A stretch of 64,000 nucleotides of DNA from Kiritimatiellia bacterium (GCA_030744755.1 JASLPY010000020.1:5209-69208); one strand, 5' to 3'. Positions 2,139-17,374 are shown, numbered from the stretch's first letter. Numbers and translations are program-made. The notes: generated by a model not told the origin, from the sequence alone.

Positions 2139-5100
2139 ATGACCGAGTGGCAAAGCAAAAGCCTTTCGATTTCCAGCATACGCAATTTCCGCCATGGTTT
2201 GGGTGGTACGTTAGTCCGGCTTGTCATAGCCGGACTTTTTCTTGCCTCCGCCTCCGCCGGATGGGCATCCATTCTTCCATTCACTGATGACTTTCAGAGT
2301 TATACCCAAGGGACCGATCTCGACGGTAGCAACGGGTGGGCAGTGGCCGGCAGTGGTTCGGTCACCGTGACCAACCATCTGTCCAGTAAGCGCGCCGCTC
2401 TGATCCCCAATAGCAGTACGAACGTCATCCTGGAGAACGACTTCACCGACGACTCGAACGTGGTATCGATCGCTTTCGACCTTCAGCCCGTTTATACCGA
2501 CGGTGATCCCTCGGATCTCATTCCCGACGATGCAACCTTCGTATACTACATCGGCACTAACGGGATGGTAACAGCGTATGACGGCCAGGATGCCTCGAAC
2601 CTCACCCATGACATAATATCGGACCAGTCTCCCACGAACTTCGTCGTCACCCTCGATTACGCGACCTCGAACTGGTCGCTTTATGTGGGAGGTGCTGAGA
2701 TCGTGTCCGATTTCGGTTTCTATTCCAGCAGTAACTCCGACTTCAACCAGATTTCATTCCTGGAGTCATCGTCGACGTCTTACCTGGACAATGTGGACAT
2801 CAAGGCTCCGCCGCTGGTTTACTTCGATCTGGCATCAGGCGAGTATGCAGAGGGCTTGAGCGTGACAGTGACTGCACGGCTTTCAACCGCCTATAGCACC
2901 GCCGTCACCGTAAACCATGCGCTCACCGGTGGTGGAAGTGGAGAACCCGCCGACATTACCGGTTATAGTAGCGGCACACTTACTTTCGATATAGGCGAAA
3001 CGGAGACCAACTTCACGTTTACTGTCACTGACGACATTTTTTGGGAGGAAGCCGAGACCCTCGTGTTCCAGTTGAGCGACGTGACGAACGGTATACTGGG
3101 TTCGCCATCGACCTTTACGCTGACTATCCCTGATGACGCCGGGGACTGGAGCCTTCCGTTCAGCGACGACTTCGAGCCTCCGCGAACCACCGGAAATCTG
3201 GACGCTCAGAACGGGTGGCAGGCCACCGATGCGGAAGTGCAGACCACCACATTTATCGATACGCAGGCCGCGAGCATCACGTCCTCGACCGGCATCGCAA
3301 GCCACCCGTTTGCCGCCGGTAATTCCAACGTCTGGACCGACCTGTACATCCAGCCGGTGTTTGGCGACAACTCGTCCACCAACCCGCCGGACGACAGTTC
3401 GTTTGCTTTCTTCGTGAATAACAGCTCCAACGTCGTGGTTTACAATGGTAACGCCACCCAGGCCCTGACCGGTGTCACTATCACACAAGGCAAGTGGGTG
3501 CGCTTCACGGTGTTCAGTGATTACGCAAACAGCAACTGGGACCTGTACGTAGACGGCGTACCGGTAACGAACGACGTGGATTTCTACACCAACACCGCTC
3601 CGACCAGTTATACTGAGTTCGGCGTACGTGGTGGCGGCGGGTCGAGTGCGCCGTTCGATGATGTGTACATCTCCACGAATCCGCCAGACCCGTTTGTGAC
3701 GTTCACCGTGGCCTCCAATTCCTATGACGAAGGCAGCACGGCCACTGGCTACGTGTCGCTGTCGTGGGCTTCCGCGAGCAATGTGACCGTGGACGTGACG
3801 GATCTCCTGACTGGGACGGCGACGAACGGCGGGGCGGGCCAGGACTACACCTTCAGCAGTCCCAGCAACCTGACGATCATCGCCGGAACAACGAACCTGC
3901 CGTTCACGTTCGTGATCGAACAGGACAATGACGGTGAACCTGCAGAAACAATCGAGTTCGCGCTTGCGAACTACGGCGGTGGTTCGGCCGGTGATATCAC
4001 AAACTTCACGGCGTATATCAACATCGACCCGTCCGACGTGCCTGATATCAGCTTCCAGACGAATGCGGTGTCTATCCCCGAAAGCACGGGTGTCGTAACG
4101 GTGACGGTAACAGTCAGCGTGCCCTACAACATTGATACCGTGAAAGTAGATTATGCGGTCAGCGGTACCGCAACTCTGAACGACGATTTCACGAATTACT
4201 CTGACGGGACGCTGATCCTGGATCCCGGCGACACCTCGACTAACTTCACCTTCGAGGTCATCAACGATCTCGAGGACGAACTGGACGAAACCGTGATCTT
4301 CGGCCTGTCGAACTTCATCAACTGTTCGGACGGCACGCACACGCAGATTACTTACACGATTCTCGAGGACGTTGGCGACGAGAAGCCCAATGTGTACTTT
4401 GCATCCTCCGGGGCGACCGTATCCGAAGGCGTCGGCACGGTGACTCAAAAGGTGTACCTGTCCAAGACGTACAACGGGACGGTGACCATCGAGGTTGAGG
4501 ACACCCTGTCCGGCACGGCCACAAATGGCGGCTTGGATTACGCCATGGGAATAACAAACCTGTCGTTCTCGCCCGGCAGCACCAGTGAAGAGTACACCGT
4601 TGCGATCAACGACGACACCATTGGTGAAGACGATGACACGATCATCCTCCAGTTGAGTAATGTCAGTGGCGCCACGATCATTGCACCGTTGACCCATACC
4701 ATCACTATTTCAGATGATGTCGCCGACTGGGGGCTGCCGTTCTATGAAACCTTCGAGTCGAGAAATGAAGCCGACCTGGACGGCCAGCACGGATGGGATG
4801 CGCTCGACGCCACGGTGCAGAGCAACAACACGTACGGCGGCAGCACCTATGCCGGCAGCATCAACTCCGAGACCGGCTTTGCTCTTCACCCGTTCTCCGA
4901 CGGCAAGTCCAACGTCTGGACGGATATCTACATCCAGCCGGTGTTTGCTGATGACAGCAGCGCCAGCGTGACCGATGTGCCTGCGGACAGCACCTTCGCG
5001 TTTTACGTGAACACCAACGGTGACGTCGTGGTTTATGACGGCAATGTCAGAAAGACGAATGACACGAACCTGACCGAGGGAGAATGGGTCCGGTTTACCG

Positions 5101-6578
5101 TGAACAGTGATTACGCGGCCACGAACTGGTCCCTTTACACTAACGGTTCCCCTGTTGCGATAGAGAGTGGATTGTCCTTCTACACGAATACTACAACATC
5201 CTATACCGAGTTTGGTATCAGGGGCGCGGGCTCATCCAATGCGCCTGTGGACGATGTGAGCATAACTCTCACCAGTCCGCTTGCCGGCCTGCCCATTGCG
5301 AGTTTCCTTGCGGCTACGGGGTCCGGGGCCGAAAGCGTTCTCAGTGTTACCGGTACGGTTGTCCTGAGCAAGAGCTATGCGAGTACCGTCACGGTGGACC
5401 ACGTGCTTCTCGACGATGGCGCTGCCGAAGCGGGCCAGGATTACAACTACACGCCCGGAACAGTAACATTCGATCCGGGTGAACAGACAAACACCTTCAC
5501 ATTCACAATTATCAACGATATCGTCGTTGATGGGCCGGACACACTTACCTTCTCGTTGAGCGGTTACAGCAATGCCGAAGCCGGGACAAGCACCAACTTT
5601 GCCTACACCATCCTGGCGGACATTGACGACGTTCCCCCTGACATCTCGTTTGTCACAAACGTCTACTCCGCCGGCGAAGACGTGCTTTCCGGAACGGGTA
5701 CTGTATATCTGAGCAAGACCTACAGCGGCACGGTGACGGTGAATCATGCCGTAATAGCACTCGGCACGACGGCCGACATCGGTGATGACTACACGTACTC
5801 GGCAGACACGCTGACGTTCAATCCGTACGTGACCAACGCCAGCTTCACATTTACCATTGTCGACGACACGTACGACGAGTCGGACGAGACGATCAAGTTC
5901 GGCCTCAGCGGTCAGAATGTGGGCTCCCTGGCGCCGTATTCAGAGTTCACCTACACCATCCTTGAAGACACGAACGACTGGTTCGCGCTGCCCTTTGTGG
6001 AGACGTTCGAAGACCGGACCCTGAGCGGGTTAAGCGGTCAGCACGGGTGGTATGCCGTGGATACCGACGTGACCAATGCTCCGGCCGCTTACATACATAC
6101 AGATTCGCAGGCAGGCCTCATCATGGCCGATGCCGGTTTGATCCGCCACACCTTCAACGACGGCCAGTCCAACGTGTGGACGGATCTCTACATCCAGCCC
6201 GTGTTCGGGGCCGACGACGACAGCGTGACCAATCCGCCTGCCAACAGCAGTTTTGCGTTTTACGTCTACACCAACGGGCAAGTGGTGGCTTTCGACGGAC
6301 GGAATTCACCGACACAGCTGGTGCACACCGCTCTGAACCCGGGCGATTGGGTTCGCTTCACGGTCTTCAGCGACTACGCTGACACCGAGTGGGATCTGTA
6401 CCTGAACGATATCCTACTGCGCGAGAACATGGATTTCGTTGATGCAACCGCTCCCGCGTCTTACACTGAGTTCGGCGTGCGCGGAGCTGGATCTTCCAAC
6501 GCTCCCATTGACGACGTGAGCATAACTCTCACTACGCCATTCCCTGTTCCAAAGGGCGCAATGTTCCTGCTCAGATAG
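2139..6578 (+). CDS. Giant secreted acidic surface protein: four lectin/LamG-like beta-sandwich repeats interleaved with about six Calx-beta domains
   Basis: SD GAGGAG at 2125-2130; signal peptide ending ASAGWA; repeats LPF.E.F...LDG..GW / VWTDLYIQPVF / WVRFTV.SDY; Calx-beta-like units (DY....GTLTF..G.T...FTF.I.DD...E.DETI.F.L); ends PKGAMFLLR. Confidence 0.8.
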   Translation: MTEWQSKSLSISSIRNFRHGLGGTLVRLVIAGLFLASASAGWASILPFTDDFQSYTQGTDLDGSNGWAVAGSGSVTVTNHLSSKRAALIPNSSTNVILENDFTDDSNVVSIAFDLQPVYTDGDPSDLIPDDATFVYYIGTNGMVTAYDGQDASNLTHDIISDQSPTNFVVTLDYATSNWSLYVGGAEIVSDFGFYSSSNSDFNQISFLESSSTSYLDNVDIKAPPLVYFDLASGEYAEGLSVTVTARLSTAYSTAVTVNHALTGGGSGEPADITGYSSGTLTFDIGETETNFTFTVTDDIFWEEAETLVFQLSDVTNGILGSPSTFTLTIPDDAGDWSLPFSDDFEPPRTTGNLDAQNGWQATDAEVQTTTFIDTQAASITSSTGIASHPFAAGNSNVWTDLYIQPVFGDNSSTNPPDDSSFAFFVNNSSNVVVYNGNATQALTGVTITQGKWVRFTVFSDYANSNWDLYVDGVPVTNDVDFYTNTAPTSYTEFGVRGGGGSSAPFDDVYISTNPPDPFVTFTVASNSYDEGSTATGYVSLSWASASNVTVDVTDLLTGTATNGGAGQDYTFSSPSNLTIIAGTTNLPFTFVIEQDNDGEPAETIEFALANYGGGSAGDITNFTAYINIDPSDVPDISFQTNAVSIPESTGVVTVTVTVSVPYNIDTVKVDYAVSGTATLNDDFTNYSDGTLILDPGDTSTNFTFEVINDLEDELDETVIFGLSNFINCSDGTHTQITYTILEDVGDEKPNVYFASSGATVSEGVGTVTQKVYLSKTYNGTVTIEVEDTLSGTATNGGLDYAMGITNLSFSPGSTSEEYTVAINDDTIGEDDDTIILQLSNVSGATIIAPLTHTITISDDVADWGLPFYETFESRNEADLDGQHGWDALDATVQSNNTYGGSTYAGSINSETGFALHPFSDGKSNVWTDIYIQPVFADDSSASVTDVPADSTFAFYVNTNGDVVVYDGNVRKTNDTNLTEGEWVRFTVNSDYAATNWSLYTNGSPVAIESGLSFYTNTTTSYTEFGIRGAGSSNAPVDDVSITLTSPLAGLPIASFLAATGSGAESVLSVTGTVVLSKSYASTVTVDHVLLDDGAAEAGQDYNYTPGTVTFDPGEQTNTFTFTIINDIVVDGPDTLTFSLSGYSNAEAGTSTNFAYTILADIDDVPPDISFVTNVYSAGEDVLSGTGTVYLSKTYSGTVTVNHAVIALGTTADIGDDYTYSADTLTFNPYVTNASFTFTIVDDTYDESDETIKFGLSGQNVGSLAPYSEFTYTILEDTNDWFALPFVETFEDRTLSGLSGQHGWYAVDTDVTNAPAAYIHTDSQAGLIMADAGLIRHTFNDGQSNVWTDLYIQPVFGADDDSVTNPPANSSFAFYVYTNGQVVAFDGRNSPTQLVHTALNPGDWVRFTVFSDYADTEWDLYLNDILLRENMDFVDATAPASYTEFGVRGAGSSNAPIDDVSITLTTPFPVPKGAMFLLR

Positions 6579-6736
6579 AGGACGGTGCACAGAGCTTAAT
6601 AGACTATTGACGAGACAAACAGGAGTGCTTGAGAGTTCTATGAAGGCGGTCTGGAGTGAGGGGAAGCAGGTCCGACTTGAAATGGGACCATGGTCCCATG
6701 CAATTGGGATCTATAAAGCAGGATGGGGTCGACAAG

Positions 6737-9700
6737 ATGAATTCGACGGGGCGCCACGCACAGCGTGGAAGGTATATATGCATACGTAGGCTTGGTGCGG
6801 TACTGACCGCGGGGCTTTTGTTGACCTGTACAGGAGTTGTCGAGGGCGCATCCACGGTGCCCTTTTCGGACTCCTTCGACTATCCCAACGGGACCGACCT
6901 GGACGGCACGAACGGATGGGGTGTAACCGGCAGCGGCTCGGCCATTGCCACCAACAGCCGGGCACGGCTTGGCGACGTGACTGTGTCCAACGTTTTCACG
7001 GGCGAGGAAGAGGTCGTTACGATTACGTTTGACGTCCAGCCACGGTTTAACGAAGGCAATCCCTCCTCACTCATTCCCGCTGATGCAACATACGCATTCT
7101 ACGTCGATACCAACGGATTGATTACGGCGTTCGACGGCCAGGCCGCATCGAACCTGACGCATGATCCTCTGAGTGAGAGCAGCAGCACTCAAATCACCGT
7201 GCGGGTGGACTACCCGGCTGAGACATGGTCGTTGTGGTTGGGCGACACGAAAGTGGCCACCGACTTTGCTTTCTACGGGGCGGCCACATCGGCTTTCACT
7301 GAAGTGGGTTTCATCGAAGGTTCTACCAACATGTACTCCTATGTCGACAACGTGGAGATCCTGGAAGTGCACCCCCGGCCCAGCGCTGCATACGCGACAG
7401 CTTCGCTGACGGTTGCCGAGACCCAGGGCACGGTCACGGCCACGGTTATCCTCAGCGAGGCGCACGACGAAGAAGTCCGGGTGGATCATTATCTCGCCGG
7501 CGGGACCGCCTTATTCGGCCAGGATTTCACCAACTATACGGACGGTACATTGATCTTCGCGGTAGACGACACGAACAAGACATTCACATTCGATATTCTC
7601 AACGATACGAGTAACGAACCGCCAGAAACCATCATCTTCGGCCTCACCGGCTACAGCAACTCCACACCCGCTGAGCCGTCAAGCTTTGCAGTTACCATCG
7701 GGGACGACGGTTCCGACTGGAGTCTCCCGTTCTATGAGCCGTTCGAGGACCGAACCCTCGGTGACCTCGACGGTCAGAACGGCTGGCGTGGCGATGATGC
7801 AGTCGCACAGAGCAACGTGGTCAGAGCCGGGAATCAGGCAGGCAGCCTCAATTCCGCGACAGGTATGATTAGTCACCCGTTCGGTGACAGTCAGACAAAC
7901 GTCTGGACCGACCTGTACATCCAGCCGGTGTTCGCTTCCGACGACGAGAACGTGACCAATCCGCCTTCCGACAGCAGCTTTGCGTTCTATGTATCAACCA
8001 ACGGACAGGTGGTGGCTTTCGACGGTACGACGCCTACACAGCTCGTGCATTACGCGCTGACCGAGGAGGAATGGGTACGGTTTACCGTACGCAGCGATTA
8101 CGTATCCACCAACTGGTCCCTGTATGTAAATGGCTTCATGGTTGCTGAGGACCTTGGCTTCTATGATACTGCTGCGACAAGCTACACTGAGTTCGGAGTG
8201 CGCGGAGCGGGCACCACCAATGCCTATATCGACGATGTCCGAATCCAGGAAGCGAGGCCCATTACAATCGGCGTATCATTCGTGACGACCGAGGCAGAGG
8301 GCGAGGAATCCGTGGGCGTCGTGACGGCGACAGTTGCCCTGAGCGAGGCCGTCACCAACGAAGTCAGTGTAGACCATTTCCACATCGGCGGCACGGCTGA
8401 CTTCGGTGCGGACTTCACGAACTACACGCCGGGGACCCTGACTTTCTCCCCGGGCCAGCTCTCCACTTCCTTCACGTTCACGGTTATAGACGACTTCGAC
8501 CCCGATCCTGATGAGACGATCACTTTCGGGTTGCACAACTTCGTTGATATAGAGGCAGGAGAGTTCACAAACTTCACCTACACCATCCTGTACGAACCGG
8601 CCGACGAGCCGCCGCCGGTTTCGTTCGAACCGGCCGAGGCCGAGGCCGAGGAGTCCGTGGCTGTCGTGACGGCGACCGTTGTCCTGGGCGCTCCCAGCGG
8701 GAAAGAAGTCAACGTAGACCACTTCCTCATCGGCGGCACGGCAGATTTTGGTGCGGACTTTACCAACTACACTCCGGGGACACTGACATTCTCCCCAGGC
8801 CAGGTCTCCACGTCCTTCACCTTCACGGTCATAAACGACACGGAGAACGAACCGGACGAGACGATCGTTATCGGGCTGAGTAACTATGTCAATGGGGTAG
8901 CAGGGGTGGAGACGAACTTTACCTACACGATCCTGTACGAACTGGCGGACGAGCCACCGGTGGTTTCGTTCCAGACCAGTGGTGTTCGCGTCGATGCGGA
9001 TGTGCCTGCTGCTTCGATTCCAGTTGTTCTGTTTCCTGCGCAGTCAACCACAGTTACAGTGGCTCACGCCATCCTACCTGCCAGCACGGCGACCGACGGC
9101 CTGGATTACACCAATTACACTCCCGGCACGCTCACCTTCGACCCGGGAGAGACGAATCAGTTCATCACCTTCACGGTCATTGATAATGGGGAAGACGTGG
9201 ATGAGGAGATTGTCATAGGGCTGAGCAACTTCACCAACGCGTCTGCTGGTCTGTACACCGAATTCACCTATACCATAGCAGGCGACTCGAACCTATGGTA
9301 CAGCTTGCCGTTTGCCGAAACGTTTGAACTGGGGGCGCCGGTCGAGCTGGATGGTCACCGCGGCTGGGTATCCGGGAATGCCACGGTGCAGACTGATGTG
9401 GTTTACTCGGGAAGCAAGGCAGCGGAAGTAAACAGCGGCCTCAGCCACACCTTCTTCGGCGGTCAAACCGACGTTTGGACCGACATGCGTGTCCGCCCGT
9501 TACTCGGTACGCCTCCGTCGGTCCCTGGGAACAGTACCTTCGCATTTTATGTAAACACGAACGGGCACGTTTGGGCCTATGACGGCGACACAGCAAGGGA
9601 TCTCACGCCTCCGGTGCCCGCCATCAGCGAGGGGCAATGGAAGCGGTTCACCGTGCACAGCGATTATGTCGACAAGACGTGGGATCTGTACGTTAATGGA

Positions 9701-9880
9701 ATGCTCATGGCTGAAGACCTCGCGTTCTACAGCGACAGCGTAACGAATTACAGCGAGTTTGGCTTGCGTTCCTTTCGCACCACCAACGCGCCGTACAGTG
9801 CCCATTTAGACGACGTCAGCATCGGTCTCACCAGGCCGTCGGGGGTGTTCGATATCGGTACGCTACTGCTCATCAGGTAG
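6737..9880 (+). CDS. Paralogous secreted Calx-beta/beta-sandwich surface protein (three sandwich repeats, about four Calx-beta units)
   Basis: Start moved to ATG 6737, which gives a signal peptide (RRLGAVLTAGLLLTCTGVVEGA); same repeat units as 2139..6578; ends GTLLLIR. Confidence 0.8.
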   Translation: MNSTGRHAQRGRYICIRRLGAVLTAGLLLTCTGVVEGASTVPFSDSFDYPNGTDLDGTNGWGVTGSGSAIATNSRARLGDVTVSNVFTGEEEVVTITFDVQPRFNEGNPSSLIPADATYAFYVDTNGLITAFDGQAASNLTHDPLSESSSTQITVRVDYPAETWSLWLGDTKVATDFAFYGAATSAFTEVGFIEGSTNMYSYVDNVEILEVHPRPSAAYATASLTVAETQGTVTATVILSEAHDEEVRVDHYLAGGTALFGQDFTNYTDGTLIFAVDDTNKTFTFDILNDTSNEPPETIIFGLTGYSNSTPAEPSSFAVTIGDDGSDWSLPFYEPFEDRTLGDLDGQNGWRGDDAVAQSNVVRAGNQAGSLNSATGMISHPFGDSQTNVWTDLYIQPVFASDDENVTNPPSDSSFAFYVSTNGQVVAFDGTTPTQLVHYALTEEEWVRFTVRSDYVSTNWSLYVNGFMVAEDLGFYDTAATSYTEFGVRGAGTTNAYIDDVRIQEARPITIGVSFVTTEAEGEESVGVVTATVALSEAVTNEVSVDHFHIGGTADFGADFTNYTPGTLTFSPGQLSTSFTFTVIDDFDPDPDETITFGLHNFVDIEAGEFTNFTYTILYEPADEPPPVSFEPAEAEAEESVAVVTATVVLGAPSGKEVNVDHFLIGGTADFGADFTNYTPGTLTFSPGQVSTSFTFTVINDTENEPDETIVIGLSNYVNGVAGVETNFTYTILYELADEPPVVSFQTSGVRVDADVPAASIPVVLFPAQSTTVTVAHAILPASTATDGLDYTNYTPGTLTFDPGETNQFITFTVIDNGEDVDEEIVIGLSNFTNASAGLYTEFTYTIAGDSNLWYSLPFAETFELGAPVELDGHRGWVSGNATVQTDVVYSGSKAAEVNSGLSHTFFGGQTDVWTDMRVRPLLGTPPSVPGNSTFAFYVNTNGHVWAYDGDTARDLTPPVPAISEGQWKRFTVHSDYVDKTWDLYVNGMLMAEDLAFYSDSVTNYSEFGLRSFRTTNAPYSAHLDDVSIGLTRPSGVFDIGTLLLIR

Positions 9881-10124
9881 CGGTTGGGAGGATAGAGTGG
9901 TTCTTCCGGCTTACGGGTGTCGATTGCACCTGTCCCCGGGCTTGAAGGGGGTCGCAGAGACACTTTCAACATCCTTCATCCCCCCGGGCCGGGACGGCTT
10001 TCGAGGCTTGCCGTGCCTCTTTCACCAGGGCCATTTAATCCATAAGCTCACTCTCTTGTGTCGCAGGAAGTTATGCAAAAAGTCTGAACTACGCTGCACT
10101 CAATGAACCCGCTGAAAACGAGAT

Positions 10125-10184
10125 CTCCCGATTGGAATCGGGAGCTACAGGGGATCGAACGTAGCGCCCGACTCCGATCGGGCG
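10125..10184. repeat. GTAG-family REP doublet (REPIN-like)
   Basis: Minus strand GTAG-CTCCCGATTCCAATCGGGAG (10125-10148) and plus strand GTAG-CGCCCGACTCCGATCGGGCG (10161-10184). Confidence 0.7.
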
Positions 10185-10346
10185 ACCTCCTCGCTGGATG
10201 ATGAACACGCTGCAAGTGGTATTGGAATACTGAACACTCTGATCCCAAATGCCTTACGGAAAACTGAATGACCCTGCCTCTTTAATACTCTCATGATTGA
10301 CCAGACCCGCTGAACGTGGTCTTATGATATCGGACCAGGAGGGCCG

Positions 10347-12308
10347 ATGAATTCACGTACACTCAGAAAGAACTACCTGCTCGCCCTTTCCGCGGTAGTC
10401 TATCTCGTGACGCTGCTGTTGCTGCTTAGCGAGCTGGACCGGCAGTACTACCAGGTGGAGAAAGAATCCACCATCAAGTACAATTTCCGTACGCTGTTTC
10501 CGCACGACACAAGGCCCCTGCAGGATGTCACCCGGAGGATCCTGGCTCGACACGATGCGGAGGAAACCGTAGACCGCCAATTGGAGAAGGAATGGCGGCA
10601 GATCGCGCAGGGTCTGCTGTCCGGAGAGGGTTGCGTGTTCCGAATTCGGATCGTGCCGAAGGACGAGGCCCAGCTGCTGGTTCAGGTGGATAACGAGAAG
10701 TTTGATCGATTGAACGGATTTGGGAATACTCTCTTCTACAGGAACTTCCAAAACGTGGTCTCTTACGAGATTGCCGGTGCGGCCGAGAAACCCTGGACCG
10801 GTTTGCTCTCCTTCCACTACACCACTCCGGGAAGCTACCAGCCGATTGTCGCGCTGACAAACCGCTACCGACTCTGGGCCCTGCTGATGTTCGCGCTTGT
10901 GACGGCCGGGTATGCCGTTGTGCTCCGCAAGCTGATCTTTCCGATAAAGCGCGTGGTGAGCCGCATCGATGCCGTGTCATCGTCAGCGCCCCAGCTCATG
11001 CCGAAACCATCCTCTGTACTTGAGAAGGCTTACAACGATCTCGCGCGCGACGCCATCCTCCTGCGGCTTGGGCAGTCGATTCGCAACATCGCGGCCGGGG
11101 ACCCGGCGATCGATCGATCGCAATTGCTTGCGCGTGCTCCGCGCGTGCTGGTGCAACTACTGGATTACCGCGCGGCGCTGGTATACGACGTCTCGCCGGA
11201 CGAATCGGGTCAATTGTCGGTTTCCGGTTGCGTCGGCGCTGACGATGGGAGAAGCTCGCGTGACTATGAAGCATACTGCATGCAACATGTTTTCATTCCC
11301 GGAAAGATCGATGGGCTCGCGGGTGTGAGGCGGGAGTTGCTCGCAGACTGTGCCGTATGCGACATCACCCAGCCGGAGGATCGCCCGCATCTTACCTTCC
11401 TGGTGCTGTTCCTCCCCGCCAAATTGAGCTCGTTCGATGCGGAGCTCCGTGAATGGCACCTGGAAACGGTCGAGCGGGTGGCCGAACAGCTACGTGACAC
11501 CGTCGCGGTATTCGACATGCAGTGGCGACATGTCCGCAATGAGCGCAGCCGTGCAAACATCAACCTGGCACGAAACCTGGGACACGATCTCACCAACATC
11601 ATCGCGACATCCAAACTGGATATCCTGACGGCCACGAAGATTCTGGACGCCGGAGAGATCGATGGCTCCGATGCTGCCGTCCGGCGGCAGTTGCTCAGTG
11701 AATCGGTACAGGGACTTCTCAATAATGCGCGGCTTCTGCAGGAGGTCGTCAATATCTACCGTTCATTCAGCTACATCAACCGTCCGCGTTTTGAGACAGT
11801 GTCGATCAACAGGGCTCTTGACGAGATAATCGAAGTGTTCTCGTTCTCGCTGCCGGGGAAAACCATTGTGCGCAAGCACTACGACCAAGACCTGCCGGAA
11901 TCCACGGTGGAGCCGCGTTTACTGAAGCTGGCCGTGTTCAATATACTGAGCAACGCGGTCGATGCTATAAAGTTGAGCGGAGCGGGGGACGGAGAGATCA
12001 CTGTCTTCACCAGCATGGTTAGCGGCAGCGACGATGTGTGTATCTCGATTCGGGACAACGGCATGGGCATACCCAACCCGGACGGGCAATTGGCGAGCCA
12101 GGCGGAGATCGACAAGATATTCCGCTATGGTGTCTCGACGAAAACAGAAGAGGGTGGCGAAGGCCTTGGACTTAGCTGGGTATGGACGATCGTTGAGGAG
12201 TTTCATGGCGGAAAGGTGCAGGCACGGAATCATCCGGATGGTGGCGCAGAGTTCTCGCTGCTGATCCCAATACGCGACAATGACAACGGAGTAATGTATG
12301 ACGACTGA
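10347..12308 (+). CDS. Membrane sensor histidine kinase (2 TM, periplasmic domain, HAMP-like, GAF-like, HisKA, HATPase)
   Basis: H-box NLGHDLTNII, N-box NILSNAVDAI, G1 IRDNGMGI, F/G2 IFRYGVSTK..GEGLGL; SD AGGAGG. Confidence 0.92.
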   Translation: MNSRTLRKNYLLALSAVVYLVTLLLLLSELDRQYYQVEKESTIKYNFRTLFPHDTRPLQDVTRRILARHDAEETVDRQLEKEWRQIAQGLLSGEGCVFRIRIVPKDEAQLLVQVDNEKFDRLNGFGNTLFYRNFQNVVSYEIAGAAEKPWTGLLSFHYTTPGSYQPIVALTNRYRLWALLMFALVTAGYAVVLRKLIFPIKRVVSRIDAVSSSAPQLMPKPSSVLEKAYNDLARDAILLRLGQSIRNIAAGDPAIDRSQLLARAPRVLVQLLDYRAALVYDVSPDESGQLSVSGCVGADDGRSSRDYEAYCMQHVFIPGKIDGLAGVRRELLADCAVCDITQPEDRPHLTFLVLFLPAKLSSFDAELREWHLETVERVAEQLRDTVAVFDMQWRHVRNERSRANINLARNLGHDLTNIIATSKLDILTATKILDAGEIDGSDAAVRRQLLSESVQGLLNNARLLQEVVNIYRSFSYINRPRFETVSINRALDEIIEVFSFSLPGKTIVRKHYDQDLPESTVEPRLLKLAVFNILSNAVDAIKLSGAGDGEITVFTSMVSGSDDVCISIRDNGMGIPNPDGQLASQAEIDKIFRYGVSTKTEEGGEGLGLSWVWTIVEEFHGGKVQARNHPDGGAEFSLLIPIRDNDNGVMYDD

Positions 12309-13584
12309 TCAACCGATCAAAATCCTGATTGTTGATGATAATGCGCAATACCGCGAAGCATTTAAGCGGACCTTGCTGCTTGAAGACTACGAGGTATGTG
12401 AGGCAGCGGATGCTGACGAGGCCATAGCGGTCATAGAGTCACAATCCCCCGACGTGGTAGTGACGGACCTCCAGATGCGCACGGATCGCGAAGGGCTTGA
12501 GCTGATCGAAACGATAAAGGCCTCCGATCCCTTCCTACCGGTGATCATGATATCTGCCGTCGGATCCTTTGAAGAGGGTGCCCTGGCCACGAAAATGGGT
12601 GCCGTCCATGTTATCCACAAGAGCCGCATAGAAGACGAAATGGAGAGCTTCTTTGATACTATCCGCCAGTCGCACGAGTCCTGCCGCAAGAGCCGCAGCC
12701 AGCTCGCGATGATTGCGAGGGCAAGGCAGCAAAGGGACCTGAAAGAGGACGACGACCGGGTTGAGGCCGTCAGGGCACTGCTCGATGATCCGGATGCCGA
12801 TCCGCACGTCCAGGGCGAGGCGTACGACTTCATCACTTCCATCAGCGAGGTGGAAATGCTTCGCAGATCCGAACTGGACATGCAGCATGCATCAGAATCC
12901 GATCGCGACCAGGAAACGTATGCGGCTGCCCTGGCGGAACTCAAGGACAATCTGGCAGGCTATGACGGGTTGGGAGACGACTCCAGGCAAGCTCTTGCGA
13001 CCGCAGAGTATCTTTACGAATTGCAGGAGAATCGTGAACTGCTCGATTTCTCCAGGACCGTCGCCTTCTCCTACTGTTTTGCGGTGGAGTGCGAGGTGCG
13101 GATCCGGCTCAAGGGGAAGATCACCCGGTTGGCCTCGAATCGTATTAACCAACGCATATTCGAGGCCTGTATGGACAAGAAGACCCGGCGCGTGGATATG
13201 GGCTTTCAGCAGAACCTTATGCTGGCGGCGCGAAACAGAGGGGTACATTTCACTATCGACAACGTGAAGGCGGTTCTAATGAGCCTCATGGGGGGGAAAG
13301 GCAGGTTCCGGGCCAACGGGCTCAAGGATATAGGGATTCTCCTGTTGTGCTTTGCAAGAGAGTATTCGTTCAGCAAGTGGGGACAGACGATTAAGGTCAA
13401 GAATCCTCTGAATGTGAAGGGCCTGCAATATGAGGAGGAGGTCCTCGCCCTTGCTGGTTCGCTCATTGATCTCCAATATGCCCGCAATCCCTATATCCAT
13501 CCCGATGTCAAAAAGAAGGAACAGCTCGCGAAGCTGCGCCAAACCGCCTTTGACTGTCTGCGCGAACTGGGGAAAGTAGTCTAA
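12298..13584 (+). CDS. Response regulator: REC domain plus C-terminal HEPN-like domain
   Basis: REC motifs ILIVDD, VVTDLQM (phospho-Asp), VIMISA, HKS; C-terminal AVECEVR (ExxxR) and RNPYIH (Rx4H); start overlaps the end of the kinase gene. Confidence 0.85.
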   Translation: MTTDQPIKILIVDDNAQYREAFKRTLLLEDYEVCEAADADEAIAVIESQSPDVVVTDLQMRTDREGLELIETIKASDPFLPVIMISAVGSFEEGALATKMGAVHVIHKSRIEDEMESFFDTIRQSHESCRKSRSQLAMIARARQQRDLKEDDDRVEAVRALLDDPDADPHVQGEAYDFITSISEVEMLRRSELDMQHASESDRDQETYAAALAELKDNLAGYDGLGDDSRQALATAEYLYELQENRELLDFSRTVAFSYCFAVECEVRIRLKGKITRLASNRINQRIFEACMDKKTRRVDMGFQQNLMLAARNRGVHFTIDNVKAVLMSLMGGKGRFRANGLKDIGILLLCFAREYSFSKWGQTIKVKNPLNVKGLQYEEEVLALAGSLIDLQYARNPYIHPDVKKKEQLAKLRQTAFDCLRELGKVV

Positions 13585-13637
13585 AGATATCCCGGTATCA
13601 TCCGTCAAATGCATGTTGCCCGAAAGGCGGCCTGGAT

Positions 13638-14100
13638 TAGCCGGAATTGAACAAGCAGCATGCGATCAAGGGATTAGAATTGGAGAACGTAACCACCCGC
13701 GCTCCCGCGCTAGAGGGCCCGAGGACACGGAGGTTAGATGGGAGGAGGGGATTTGGGCTCCGGGGAAGTTGTATGAATCTGGCGGAATGACCCCCTCTAC
13801 CCCTCATTCCTTTTCCCAGATTCATGCAACGTTTGCCATGGAGAGGAAGAAGAGAAAGAATGTAGGCTTCTCATTACCGCCTTCGTTCTGACCTGTCTCC
13901 TCCGTCCCCACAATCTCTCTCAAGAGGCAAACGTGGCATGAATTTGATGATGGTTTCGCCTCTATTCTGAAAAATGCCTGGCGACATGAAAGTCACAACG
14001 AAACCATCGTCACATTCATGCCGCTCCCGGAAGCAGCGTCTCCTCCTCCCATCTAACCTCCGTGTCCTCCGGGCCCTCTAGCGCGGGAGCGCGGGTGGTT
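13638..14100. repeat. Structured repeat element, copy A (57-bp inverted repeats enclosing three hairpins, plus a 53-bp flank)
   Basis: IR 13691-13747 / 14043-14100; inner hairpins 13768-13830, 13831-13932 and 13935-14022; homologous to 32140-32613. Confidence 0.9.
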
Positions 14101-14139
14101 CAATCTCTCCTCAACGAAGTGTGGCGAGCGTCTCAGCAG

Positions 14140-14224
14140 TTATGTTAAGTAGTTCTTCGCCCGATTTCCTCATCCGCAGAGACTTACGGAACCCACTCAA
14201 GATAATCCCGTACTCCACATAACA
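14140..14224. other. XerD-arm-like (TTATGTTAAGT, 14140-14150) and XerC-arm-like (ACTCCACATAA, 14212-14222) half-sites
   Basis: First arm matches the E. coli dif XerD arm TTATGTTAAAT at 10/11; 14204-14224 is repeated exactly in reverse at 47445-47465. Confidence 0.5.
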
Positions 14225-14272
14225 TCGCAGAATGCTCATATGTTTGCTATGATTTCGCCTTCACCATACCAA

Positions 14273-14281
14273 TGATAGAAT
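14273..14281 (+). promoter_or_regulatory. Putative extended -10 promoter (TGaTAGAAT) for the GH38 gene
   Basis: TGnTAnnnT match 40 nt upstream of ATG 14321. Confidence 0.35.
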
Positions 14282-14320
14282 ACTCGATAACTCTGATATT
14301 GCTTACCAGGGAGCGTTATT

Positions 14321-17300
14321 ATGCCGCGGTTTACAGACTACACTGACAACCAGTTGGGTCGTGTTCAGGATGCCATTTTCGAGCATGTGTATACTAAGGT
14401 TGGAGATCTTGAGATCACTGCCTACTGTAGCCCCGAACCGCTTCCGTTTCCACAGCGTCGACGCGGCAAGAAACGTATTCTGCGCGTTGGGGACACATGG
14501 GGAAAGCTGTTTGAATGCGCGTGGTTTCACTTCCGGGGCACTGTACCGAAGTCAGCCTCCGGCAAAAAAGTGGTTCTCCTCATTGATGTGAATGGCGAGC
14601 TGTGCGTGTTCGACAGTAAAGGGGTTCCCGCCCGTGGACTGACCTGTGGCTCGTCTGTCTTTGCCGATAGCATGCATACGATAGGTAAGCGAGTTCTCCC
14701 GTTTGCGAAGAAAGCCAAAGGGGGGGCACGGATTGATCTCTGGGCTGATGCCGGATGCAATGGGCTGTTTGGCAATCTGCGCAACGAGGGCAAAATCGAT
14801 ATTGCGGCAATCGCCATTTGCAACGACGACATGCGCGACCTGGCCTATGATTTCCGGGTACTTCTCGATTTCTGGAAAGCGGCTCCCCGTGAGACCGGGC
14901 GAAGCAGACAGATGCGAAACGCTCTGCAGCGTGTAGCCGCGACGATGGTGGAATTCTCGCCCGAGGAAGTGAGGCGCTCCCGGCAGATTCTTGCCCCGAC
15001 CCTTTCCAAGAAAGGTGGCGATGCCGCGCTACATGTCAGCGCGATCGGACACGCCCACCTGGATCTTGCCTGGCTTTGGCCGGAGCGCGAGACCTGGCGC
15101 AAGGGCGCACGTACCTTTGCCACGGTCCTTGAGTTGATGGAGCGGTATCCGGATTATCAATTCGGCGCCAGCCAGCCACAACTGTTCCTGTGGATGAAGA
15201 ATCTCTATCCGGCGCTCTATCGAAAAATCAAAAGGAAGGTGAAAGAAGGACGTATCGAGCCCCAGGGAGCGATGTGGGTAGAGTCCGATACCAATATTCC
15301 TTGCGGGGAATCGCTGGTCCGTCAGCTGCTATATGGCAAACGGTTCTACGAGCGTGAGTTTGGTGTCGAAATGGACTATCTATGGCTTCCCGACGTGTTC
15401 GGGTATTCCGCCGCGCTGCCGCAGATTCTGCGACTCGCCGACGTGAAGTACTTTATGACGCAGAAACTGTCCTGGAGCACAATCAACAGATTCCCGCATC
15501 ACTCATTCCGTTGGCAAGGGATTGATGGAACACAAGTGCTGACCCACATGCTTCCCGAGGACACTTACAACAGTTCGGCATTACCTCGATCCCTCGCAAA
15601 AATCGATAAGGAGTACTTGGACGGCGATGTGTCCGACGAGGCTCTGATGCTGTTCGGGATTGGCGACGGGGGGGGCGGTCCCGGGGCCGAACACCTTGAG
15701 TCTCTCAAGCGAATCCAAAACCTGGCGGGACTGCCACCGGTTCGGCAAGAGCCTGTCGCCAGCTTCTTTCCACGTTGGGCAAAGGATGCAGAGGCTTTTG
15801 CCACGTGGGTGGGAGAGCTGTATCTGGAGCGCCACCAGGGCACCTTTACGACGCATGGGCGGATCAAATGGTACAACCGCCGGATTGAGCAAGCGCTGCG
15901 CGAACTCGAGTGGACGGCGGCTTGTGCGCGCATTGTGGCGGGTAAAGCCTATCCACGCAGACAACTGCTTTCCATTTGGCAAAGAATACTGTGCTTCCAG
16001 TTCCATGACATTCTTCCCGGCTCTTCGATCAAACGGGTCTATGACGAATGCAAAACAGATTACAGCAAGATGCTGGCGGATATCGGGCAGCGCCTCGAGC
16101 AGTGCAGGGCTGCCATTGCGCGACGGCTCGATACGCAGAACTGCGCGAAGCCCTGGCTTGTCAGTAATTCGCTGAGCTGGTCGCGAACCGAGTGGCTCAA
16201 ACTGGGGCGCCGCTGGACACAGGTGACAACGCCGGCGATGAGTTTCTCCGTTGTCGATGCGCAGGCAACGCGCCCGGAGATTCCAGGCCTGAAGGCAACC
16301 CCGCGACTGCTTGAGAATGATCGTCTTCGCGTTCGTTTTCATCAAAGCGGCGCGATCAACAGCATCTATGACAAAGTAGCCCGCCGCGAGGTCTTGGCCA
16401 AGGGCGCGCTGGCCAACCGTTTGACTGTCTACCAGGACAAGGGCAACGCCTGGGACTTTCCCATGGACTATGCGGACAAGAACGTCCGGACCATGCATCT
16501 GGTCTCTAGCGAAGCCAAGGTCGATGGTCCACGGGCCGCAGTACGCCAGCGCTACACTCTCGGCCATTCCGTGGTCGATCAGGAGATTCTCCTGATGGCC
16601 GGCAGCCCCCTTCTTGAGTTTGCCACTCGCGCAACCTGGCGCGACACGGAAACCATGCTGCGCACATCGTTCCCTGTCGATATCCTGGCCGATCGAGCAT
16701 CCTATGAGATCCAGTTCGGCTCACTGGAGCGTCCGACCCACCGGAATACGAGTTGGGACCTGGCACGGGATGAGGTGCCGGCGCAGAAATGGGTGGACCT
16801 GTCACAACGGGACTACGGCGTTGCACTGGTCAATGACTCGAAATATGGCCACAAAGTGAAGGACAATATACTGGACCTGAACCTGCTGCGCAGCGTACCG
16901 CACACGGGTGCACGTGTCTTTGATGACAGCAACCTGAAGCCTGGTGAGCCCAACTACCGCTATACCGACCAGGAGGATCACGAGTTTCGGTACGGTCTCT
17001 ATCCTCACCAGGGGGACTATGTCTCGGGTGGCGTGGTTCGGATCGCTTGCGAGTTCAACATTCCGTTACATACCATGCCGGTCGCCGGCCATCGGGGCGA
17101 CAGCCAATCGCTGTCTATGCTTCATGTCGATTCGGCGGAAATCGTTGTGGAGGCTGTGAAAATGGCGGAGGACCGGGATTCCATGATTGTACGACTGTAT
17201 GAGAGTTCAGGATCTGCGGTCGACGCAACCCTGTCGTTCGGGAAGCCCGTTAACCAGGTTCACGAAGTAGGGATTATGGAGAACGCTATCGGTAACCTGA

Positions 17301-17374
17301 AAATCCGCAAGCAAGGAGTCCCCCTGCGGTTTGGCGCATTTCAGATTCGCACGCTGGAAGTGGAATTCAAGTAG
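14321..17374 (+). CDS. Alpha-mannosidase, glycoside hydrolase family 38 (no signal peptide)
   Basis: GHAHLDLAWLW, WLPDVFGYS, WVGELYLERHQGT, FQFHDILPGSSI, YEIQFG, VNDSKYG. Confidence 0.95.
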   Translation: MPRFTDYTDNQLGRVQDAIFEHVYTKVGDLEITAYCSPEPLPFPQRRRGKKRILRVGDTWGKLFECAWFHFRGTVPKSASGKKVVLLIDVNGELCVFDSKGVPARGLTCGSSVFADSMHTIGKRVLPFAKKAKGGARIDLWADAGCNGLFGNLRNEGKIDIAAIAICNDDMRDLAYDFRVLLDFWKAAPRETGRSRQMRNALQRVAATMVEFSPEEVRRSRQILAPTLSKKGGDAALHVSAIGHAHLDLAWLWPERETWRKGARTFATVLELMERYPDYQFGASQPQLFLWMKNLYPALYRKIKRKVKEGRIEPQGAMWVESDTNIPCGESLVRQLLYGKRFYEREFGVEMDYLWLPDVFGYSAALPQILRLADVKYFMTQKLSWSTINRFPHHSFRWQGIDGTQVLTHMLPEDTYNSSALPRSLAKIDKEYLDGDVSDEALMLFGIGDGGGGPGAEHLESLKRIQNLAGLPPVRQEPVASFFPRWAKDAEAFATWVGELYLERHQGTFTTHGRIKWYNRRIEQALRELEWTAACARIVAGKAYPRRQLLSIWQRILCFQFHDILPGSSIKRVYDECKTDYSKMLADIGQRLEQCRAAIARRLDTQNCAKPWLVSNSLSWSRTEWLKLGRRWTQVTTPAMSFSVVDAQATRPEIPGLKATPRLLENDRLRVRFHQSGAINSIYDKVARREVLAKGALANRLTVYQDKGNAWDFPMDYADKNVRTMHLVSSEAKVDGPRAAVRQRYTLGHSVVDQEILLMAGSPLLEFATRATWRDTETMLRTSFPVDILADRASYEIQFGSLERPTHRNTSWDLARDEVPAQKWVDLSQRDYGVALVNDSKYGHKVKDNILDLNLLRSVPHTGARVFDDSNLKPGEPNYRYTDQEDHEFRYGLYPHQGDYVSGGVVRIACEFNIPLHTMPVAGHRGDSQSLSMLHVDSAEIVVEAVKMAEDRDSMIVRLYESSGSAVDATLSFGKPVNQVHEVGIMENAIGNLKIRKQGVPLRFGAFQIRTLEVEFK

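Follow-up and report, generated by a model that had tools for sequence, protein, structure and literature searches.

Two known kinds of protein, the enzymatic response regulators and the sensor-gated HEPN ribonucleases, appear to be joined in a gene pair at positions 10,347-13,584 of a 64,000-nt stretch of DNA from a Kiritimatiellia bacterium (GCA_030744755.1, JASLPY010000020.1:5209-69208; this whole stretch is referred to as the window). The pair encodes a two-component system, consisting of a sensor histidine kinase and a response regulator with a receiver (REC) domain. On balance, structural modelling suggests that the regulator ends in an unannotated member of the HEPN fold and is probably an endoribonuclease controlled by phosphorylation. 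Nearly all response regulators studied so far alter transcription, second-messenger levels or motility. An earlier note on this sequence had stated that no characterised REC-HEPN pair was known, and a full-text literature search likewise turned up none, although supplementary architecture tables, which lay outside that search, might list one. In the accessible portions of the relevant papers, the HEPN survey uses the word 'receiver' once and not for a HEPN fusion (PMC3710099), REC is fused to CnuA and not to HEPN (PMC11090510), Cam2 is a transmembrane-REC protein (PMC11229360), no REC-HEPN regulator is described (PMC8195603), and HEPN is not mentioned in the Ambrosia preprint, where AbrC is a REC domain joined to a winged helix-turn-helix.

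The HEPN ribonucleases that most resemble the output domain of the regulator are RnlA and LsoA (RNase LS). They are its best structural matches and supply its nearest Pfam-named clusters by language-model features. As in RnlA (R318...H323 of 357 residues), the R-x4-H motif is followed by one last C-terminal helix. However, no sequence relationship to RnlA or LsoA was found (hhalign probability at most 1.2%), and neither PF19034 nor PF18869 was among the matches listed. Moreover, RnlA is checked by the antitoxin RnlB and is found in prophage, whereas here control would lie with the fused REC domain and a kinase, no conserved antitoxin-like gene was found, and in Sumerlaeota the gene behaves like a core gene. 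The Pfam match and adjacent antitoxin that would place the regulator in the RnlA/LsoA family were not found. A PF19034 search of the window's genome gave no match and is uninformative, since none was obtained in 14 control genomes either.

Ire1 couples a lumenal sensor to an RNase through phosphorylation-dependent oligomerisation. The design proposed here is comparable, in that phosphorylation-dependent oligomerisation drives the C-terminal HEPN-type RNase of Ire1 and RNase L and the lumenal sensor of Ire1 lies outside the cytoplasm. According to the accessible text of the HEPN survey, KEN is a circularly permuted HEPN family in which the arginine, the polar residue that follows it and the histidine are required for activity (PMC3710099). 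In contrast to Ire1 and RNase L, where a Ser/Thr kinase or pseudokinase lies in the same chain and KEN is permuted, the present system would use His-Asp phosphotransfer between two proteins, and its modelled helices follow the canonical order. Csm6 and Csx1 also join an N-terminal Rossmann-like sensor domain to a C-terminal dimeric HEPN RNase, and Csm6 structures and Csm6_HEPN clusters were among the matches obtained for the output domain. These enzymes differ in being activated by cyclic oligoadenylate bound to CARF, whereas putative REC phosphorylation would be the switch here, and no CRISPR context is present in the window.

Response regulators that act on RNA and not on DNA are known from the ANTAR group (EutV, AmiR). 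ANTAR is a small RNA-binding coiled coil which prevents termination without cleaving RNA. The regulator has no ANTAR Pfam match, and the RNA cleavage proposed for it would set it apart from this group. In Detocs, the regulator has, in place of a DNA-binding domain, an enzyme whose direct target is a molecule of the cell, and the effectors given in the accessible part of the preprint are PNP, REase, TOPRIM and transmembrane domains, with no mention of HEPN (Detocs preprint). Detocs consists of the kinase DtcA, the standalone receiver DtcB and the receiver-effector DtcC, whereas no standalone receiver adjoins the gene pair, either here or at the related loci. Detocs is also a mobile defence system, whereas the present family is near-universal in Sumerlaeota. 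With no third receiver gene, and no PADLOC match for the kinase or the output domain, the pair was not assigned to Detocs.

The response regulator and its conserved motifs

The two genes and the parts of the regulator are as follows.

10347-12308, plus strand: sensor histidine kinase gene, 653 aa (open reading frame)
12298-13584, plus strand: response regulator gene, 428 aa, with REC, helical linker and HEPN-like domain (open reading frame)
12322-12639, plus strand: REC receiver domain, regulator residues 9-114 (Pfam PF00072 Response_reg, E 1.7e-21)
12640-12975, plus strand: predicted helical linker, residues 115-226, opening with a long helix (115-143) that extends from REC (AlphaFold2, AF2, models)
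12976-13581, plus strand: putative HEPN-like output domain, residues 227-428 (AF2 model, VIA-align, ESM Atlas leads)
13087-13101, plus strand: E264-x3-R268 (E264-C-E-V-R268), an Ex3[KR] motif in helix 2 (55-member alignment)
13483-13500, plus strand: R396-N397-P-Y-I-H401, an R-N-x3-H motif at the end of helix 3 (alignment and AF2 model)

The kinase stop and the regulator start overlap by 11 nt on the same strand, which bears out the overlapping kinase gene reported in the earlier note. The acidic pocket of REC (D13, D14), its acceptor D57, S86 and K108 are all present and conserved. This phospho-acceptor set, together with the cognate histidine kinase gene, identifies the protein as a two-component response regulator. 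The REC fold resembles CheY-type and NtrX-type structures, and an EutV-RNA complex is also among its structure matches; when the full-length regulator model was searched with Foldseek, only REC matches were returned. Response_reg is the sole Pfam domain of the regulator, which has no match to a helix-turn-helix, GGDEF, AAA or ANTAR domain. Thus the description of an intact REC lacking a helix-turn-helix, GGDEF or AAA output was correct. NCBIfam matches of the REC domain include RssB-type adaptors, and a PADLOC model, SduA, matches the REC part weakly (residues 2-90). In all 32 close relatives compared, two stretches of REC are invariant (nt 12475-12582), namely M60-R61-T62..E65-G66-L67 and S86..A95 ('SAVGSFEEGA'). 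These invariant stretches within residues 60-95 may be the surface that talks to the output domain. For the helical linker, no family match was found in Pfam, NCBIfam or PADLOC.

The output domain carries two motifs that the earlier note had read as ExxxR and Rx4H; both were found, the second on exactly the codons that it gave. The first ends the string DFS...YCFAVECEVR (residues 250-268), and the second lies within LIDLQYARNPYIHP, which contains R396 (nt 13483-13485) and H401 (nt 13498-13500). Conservation was assessed in an alignment of 55 family members, with identity down to ~24%. Seven positions are invariant in 55/55 members (F257, E264, Q393, R396, N397, H401 and R414), so that the arginine and histidine of the second motif proved to be fixed throughout the aligned homologs, which include a zinc-ribbon variant that lacks REC. 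Position 268 is R in 30 members, K in 24 and Q in one. With E264, R396, N397 and H401 each retained in every member, the motifs are more than a chance occurrence.

Further searches revealed a small and isolated family. When the C-terminal region was used as query in a word-indexed search, 31 proteins were returned, of which 30 have a REC annotation and a length of ~420-437 aa. Among 1.84 billion cluster representatives, phmmer found only 33 matches at E<=0.001 (21 at E<=1e-30), which makes the output domain rare and isolated in sequence space. A profile search of a 5.8-billion-protein set gave 34 matches at E<=1, all of them family members, with no bridge to a named HEPN family. In the C-terminal 245 residues, no PADLOC match was found and NCBIfam gave a single line at chance level (E 0.051). 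The output domain is thus a previously unannotated family that lies outside all Pfam, NCBIfam and PADLOC models. Four metagenomic proteins of 340-348 aa (P0065, P0075, P0076, P0077) have an N-terminal zinc-ribbon-like CxxC...CxxC instead of REC and retain both Ex3K and R-N-x3-H. These variants indicate that the output module is portable and that the motif residues are what it keeps.

The fold of the output domain

AF2 modelled the full-length regulator with a predicted local distance difference test (pLDDT) score of 84.0 and a predicted template-modelling (pTM) score of 0.77. When the C-terminal part was modelled alone from a 55-row alignment, these values were 89.7 and 0.87. The modelled output domain has four core helices (residues 227-245, 252-280, 379-400 and 406-426). 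Helices 2 and 3 are separated by a 98-residue insert (281-378) containing four short helices and a beta hairpin. R396 to Y399 close helix 3 in the model, and H401 opens the loop that follows. As described in the accessible part of the HEPN survey, the HEPN core is a four-helix up-down bundle of two alpha-hairpins, inserts are common between helices 2 and 3, the Rx4-6H motif runs from the end of helix 3 into the loop with N, D or H usually following the R, and a second conserved acidic residue lies in helix 2, typically as Ex3[KR] (PMC3710099). In the AF2 model of the regulator, helix 2 carries Ex3[KR], the insert follows it, and R-N-x3-H, with N as the polar residue after R, falls at the junction of helix 3 and the loop, so that the motifs and the insert are placed as the survey describes.

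The C-terminal model was compared exhaustively with 48,161 PDB representative chains by VIA-align, and the best 50 rows were considered. The highest scores were obtained for RnlA (6y2r, Z 9.6, 153 residues aligned), LsoA (5hy3, Z 9.2), a protein of unknown function (3mfn, Z 8.5) and the NRD-HEPN part of RnlA (7aex, Z 8.5), with 152-158 residues aligned in the three RnlA and LsoA structures. Next came the HEPN protein AF_0298 (2hsb, Z 8.1, 115 of 126 residues), the sacsin HEPN domain (3o10, Z 7.6), Roquin (Z 7.6), TT1696 (Z 7.4) and the 'HEPN homologue' ST0689 (1wol, Z 7.4). Small HEPN domains were aligned over nearly their full length, at 115/126 and 113/127 residues. Lower rows included SO_3166, 1wwp, an AMPylated HEPN toxin, the 'HEPN domain protein' 4nqf, YutE, and Csm6 (6tug, Z 6.2; 5yjc, Z 6.0). 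HEPN proteins or HEPN RNases, as assigned by entry title or literature text, filled six of the first 10 rows, and 13 rows in the best 50. By ESM Atlas language-model features, all of the nearest Pfam-named clusters were HEPN-type (scores 0.77-0.89), comprising RnlA-toxin_DBD, HEPN_RnaseLS, HEPN, Cas_Csm6_HEPN and DUF4145. An Atlas structure search matched residues 227-428 to a 121-aa cluster with a template-modelling (TM) score of 0.77 by cluster length, and 17% of the members of this cluster carry PF05168 HEPN.

Several results weigh against a HEPN assignment. The VIA-align Z scores reach at most 9.6, below the ~13 that helical bundles can attain through common arrangement, and bundles that are not related (from vinculin, catenin and designed proteins) were listed as well. 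Taken alone, the fold match of the model is therefore suggestive and not decisive. A Foldseek search of the C-terminal model against PDB and BFVD gave no match at E<=0.001; its best rows had TM scores of 0.12-0.28 and root-mean-square deviations of 11-55 Å. The Atlas feature scores are at lead level only, and a third of shuffled proteins likewise give ten matches of the same clan. The C-terminal 245 residues of the regulator match no Pfam family at E<=10, and a Pfam scan of the 55 members showed no HEPN model among the 25 listed of 58 families. A profile of the REC-less family members gave only two chance-level rows against PDB sequences. Finally, hhalign compared the family with E. coli RnlA by itself and with an alignment of the RnlA HEPN region (35 sequences, E. 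coli K-12 rnlA and relatives), at probabilities of 0.1-1.2%. Across Pfam, the PDB profile and hhalign, no sequence-profile relationship to an established HEPN family was found. HEPN families are described as very divergent from one another in the accessible part of the survey (PMC3710099). For this reason the null profile results do not exclude HEPN membership, and they were read as pointing to a HEPN fold whose family is new, not to a non-HEPN domain, with confidence kept moderate. The earlier proposal that the output is a HEPN domain thus gains support from fold resemblance, motif position and invariance, and none from profile searches. The structural check that it suggested was likewise divided: the best VIA-align matches of the AF2 model are HEPN proteins, and Foldseek found none in PDB or BFVD.

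It could be argued that the domain is a helical bundle unrelated to HEPN, in which the conserved residues make up a site for a protein partner or a small molecule, as in a phosphorylation-controlled adaptor or partner switch of the RssB kind. The lack of a sequence link to any HEPN family, the blank Foldseek result, Z scores within the generic helical range in a list that contains non-HEPN bundles, and the RssB-type NCBIfam matches of REC would all agree with this. On the other hand, such a bundle would have acquired an Ex3[KR] in helix 2, an R-N-x3-H at the junction of helix 3 and the loop, and an insert between helices 2 and 3 by multiple coincidence. It would also have to align with small HEPN domains over nearly their whole length and find only HEPN families among its named Atlas neighbours. 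This explanation is considered unlikely. Another four-helix bundle, the Hpt phosphotransfer domain, was rejected as a candidate. An Hpt domain exposes its histidine in the middle of a helix. In the output domain the invariant histidine lies in the loop after R-N and not mid-helix, and no Hpt chain was found in the best 50 VIA-align rows.

If the HEPN assignment is accepted, the domain might still bind RNA or a nucleotide without cleaving RNA, and regulate by antitermination, sequestration or allostery. RNA-binding response regulators exist, as the EutV-RNA complex among the REC structure matches illustrates, and a single-copy core gene without an antitoxin is compatible with a harmless binder. 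In the accessible text of the HEPN survey, non-catalytic HEPN domains do serve as binding modules; however, they are the versions that lack Rx4-6H (PMC3710099), whereas the present family has the full catalytic signature, with R, N, H and E in 55/55 members and K or R in 54/55. A non-cleaving domain is given the same low likelihood as the unrelated bundle, and an RNA-cleaving HEPN domain remains the preferred reading. A homodimer prediction for the C-terminal domain scored 0.44 against 0.77 for one control and is uninformative on dimerisation.

Kinase, neighbourhood and distribution

The kinase gene encodes the following parts.

10368-10439, plus strand: putative transmembrane helix 1, kinase residues ~8-31 (Kyte-Doolittle 19-residue windows >1.6, starts 8-13)
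10440-10865, plus strand: putative extracytoplasmic sensor loop, residues ~32-173, ~145 aa (between the two hydrophobic segments)
10866-10946, plus strand: putative transmembrane helix 2, residues ~174-200 (Kyte-Doolittle windows >1.6, starts 174-182)
11583-11585, plus strand: H413, candidate phospho-accepting histidine in the H-box 'LGHDLTN' (motif search)
11913-12272, plus strand: HATPase_c catalytic ATP-binding domain, residues 523-642 (Pfam, E 1.6e-18)

A motif search also located a G1 box (DNGMG) at residue 570 and a G2 box (GEGLGL) at 604, and NCBIfam kinase models cover the protein from ~380 to the C-terminus (for example PRK09303 at 398-644). The loop at residues ~32-173 contains no Pfam domain. 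It is conserved, since tblastn alignments with Sumerlaeota kinases begin at query residue 31 or earlier. Because two hydrophobic segments flank this ~145-aa loop, extracytoplasmic sensing by the kinase is plausible.

Relatives of the regulator were sought in a scan of one genome per species, which gave 52 loci with full or near-full-length relatives. The three closest (61-62% identity) are labelled Verrucomicrobia, Victivallales and Kiritimatiellia. One of the remaining loci is labelled Myxococcia, and 48 belong to Sumerlaeota/BRC1, two unlabelled ones being placed there by clade. Among the 75 Sumerlaeota genomes searched, 66 contain a match, and 65 of these have exactly one; the other, G104, has two pieces on two contigs. 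In a quick IQ-TREE phylogeny, from which L049 was left out (its translation is 338 aa), the window groups with the three Planctomycetes-Verrucomicrobia-Chlamydiae (PVC) loci with a Shimodaira-Hasegawa-like approximate likelihood ratio (SH-aLRT) support of 100, and lies apart from the Sumerlaeota sequences by a long branch (1.38). The genome of the window (6.28 Mb, 531 contigs, 89.7% complete) has one copy of the output domain. Among other genomes, the domain was found in 1/40 from the same order and in 0/3 from the same family.

Synteny of the related loci was scored by tblastn. The cognate kinase adjoins the regulator in 34/52 loci (33 upstream, one downstream), and in five of the 18 loci without an adjacent kinase the upstream sequence is shorter than 800 nt. 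Of the 48 Sumerlaeota-type loci, 25 have an LptE-like gene before the kinase and 22 a LolA-like one. Pfam supported both assignments in four Sumerlaeota loci, with E values of 7e-14 to 5e-18 for LolA and 5.5e-4 to 2e-8 for LptE, one LptE score falling short of the cut-off. The LolA-like protein of the operon is the sole LolA-family match in two genomes (G041 and G078), and the LptE-like protein is the sole LptE match in G041. The order LolA-like, LptE-like, kinase, regulator thus recurs in Sumerlaeota, which answers the call of the earlier note for an examination of synteny in homologs.

Two findings on gene context count against the preferred reading. In the window's genome the locus lacks the LolA/LptE surroundings, LptE being on another contig and LolA not being found in the assembly, which is 89.7% complete. 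In addition, six loci without an adjacent kinase (L013, L018, L019, L027, L049, L051) have an RNase J gene directly after the regulator on the same strand; this neighbourhood forms a single clade (SH-aLRT 100) and represents one rearrangement event. In Sumerlaeota the regulator is also followed by a conserved protein of ~450 aa that matches tetratricopeptide repeats weakly. A helicase of the DEAD/DEAH type, containing an MrfA zinc-binding domain together with an HRQ1 winged helix, lies downstream in four loci as well (for both observations, L026 9236-13003, L032, L040 and L042).

An anti-phage or abortive-infection module would be a different explanation of the pair. In this case the kinase would sense infection or damage to the envelope by phage, and the HEPN RNase would degrade RNA indiscriminately in a Detocs-like manner. 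Many HEPN RNases are indeed defence toxins (RnlA/LsoA, Csm6), and the accessible part of the Detocs preprint describes two-component defence with swappable effector domains (Detocs preprint). The sporadic occurrence in the window's order (1/40) and the weak SduA match in the REC part would also fit. The distribution in Sumerlaeota, where 66/75 genomes match and 65 of them exactly once, and the conserved LolA-like/LptE-like operon argue against it. Moreover, the PVC and Sumerlaeota members lie cleanly apart in the quick tree, so that phyla are not mixed, and the output domain has no PADLOC match. No Detocs-style buffer REC gene is present, no defence gene was found among the neighbours examined at the window locus and related loci, and the neighbours in the window are Calx-beta, GH38 and SASA genes. 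An antitoxin-like partner was not found either, in that related loci share no conserved small downstream gene. A defence role is regarded as very unlikely, less likely than either the bundle or the non-cleaving domain.

In the window, the pair is surrounded by the following genes.

3-1166: SASA-type sialate O-acetylesterase, flanking the region
2139-6578: Calx-beta repeat protein, 1479 aa, upstream of the gene pair
6656-9880, plus strand: secreted Calx-beta repeat protein, 1074 aa, with a 466-nt gap to the kinase gene
14321-17374: glycoside hydrolase family 38 (GH38) alpha-mannosidase, 1017 aa, flanking the region

The two giant surface proteins described as neighbours in the earlier note are the two upstream Calx-beta repeat proteins. 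Both contain an unannotated ~190-aa module interleaved with the Calx-beta repeats, three copies of it in the 1074-aa protein. A short hydrophobic tail (...GTLLLIR) ends the 1074-aa protein, and in L001 the gene before the kinase encodes both this module and this tail. In two of the three closest loci, L001 and L002 (a clustered homologue), the kinase is preceded by a gene with the ~190-aa module; in L003 it is not. The 1074-aa protein is possibly linked to the two-component system. Thirteen sequencing runs are listed as containing the sequence, all of them DNA and labelled as seawater, marine, aquatic or estuary metagenomes. The GH38 and SASA genes, together with these marine runs, fit a glycan-degrading marine PVC-type bacterium. 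In this bacterium the gene pair is proposed to be an accessory copy beside the genes for large secreted Calx-beta proteins.

The 736-nt gap downstream of the regulator (13585-14320) holds only a 92-aa open reading frame, which has no counterpart in related loci. An Rfam search of 9500-14600 gave no match at E<=1. Promoter-like sites in 9700-14400 numbered four against 2.6 in shuffled sequence, and terminator-like sites four against 3.7, showing no excess.

Proposed mechanism and significance

The intact phosphorelay motifs and overlapping genes suggest how the system could work. The kinase, held by two membrane helices, would sense an extracytoplasmic signal through its ~145-aa loop, autophosphorylate on H413 and pass the phosphate to D57 of the regulator. 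Phosphorylation would alter the pairing of REC and the long helix that follows it, and so bring together or reset two HEPN domains. Other HEPN RNases depend on dimerisation, and by analogy two R396-N397-x3-H401 loops backed by E264 and R268 may then form the RNA-cleaving site. As in other HEPN enzymes, cleavage would probably require no metal and yield a 2',3'-cyclic phosphate end.

A specific RNA target is expected rather than indiscriminate toxicity, because the regulator is near-universal and nearly always a single match in Sumerlaeota and has no antitoxin-like partner. A function in homeostasis of the outer membrane or envelope is also expected, since the operon there often includes the only LolA and LptE homologues that could be detected. 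Near-universal occurrence, almost always as one match, together with the LolA/LptE operon and the lack of both an antitoxin and a buffer gene, favours housekeeping control linked to the envelope over phage defence or abortive infection. Of the roles suggested in the earlier note, envelope stress therefore gains support from the LolA-like/LptE-like operon, whereas defence or dormancy fits the distribution poorly.

A bolder proposal would make the pair a bacterial counterpart of Ire1. An envelope sensor kinase would activate a REC-HEPN regulator that cleaves specific mRNAs or a tRNA or rRNA site, and thereby cut the supply of outer-membrane or secreted proteins when lipoprotein or lipopolysaccharide transport falters. 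This would be a core circuit of Sumerlaeota, borrowed by some marine PVC bacteria, and its output a new HEPN family also found behind a zinc ribbon. In this full form the proposal is speculative and rather improbable.

If the preferred reading of the regulator as an RNA-cutting HEPN enzyme is true, it would give two-component signalling a fast post-transcriptional output, in which an envelope signal is converted directly to RNA cleavage. Bacteria would then also have a parallel to the eukaryotic kinase-coupled HEPN RNases Ire1 and RNase L. Given its presence in 66 of 75 Sumerlaeota genomes, nearly always as a single match and often with the only detectable LolA and LptE genes, the regulator family may serve as a readout of how the outer membrane is built in a phylum on which hardly any experimental work exists.

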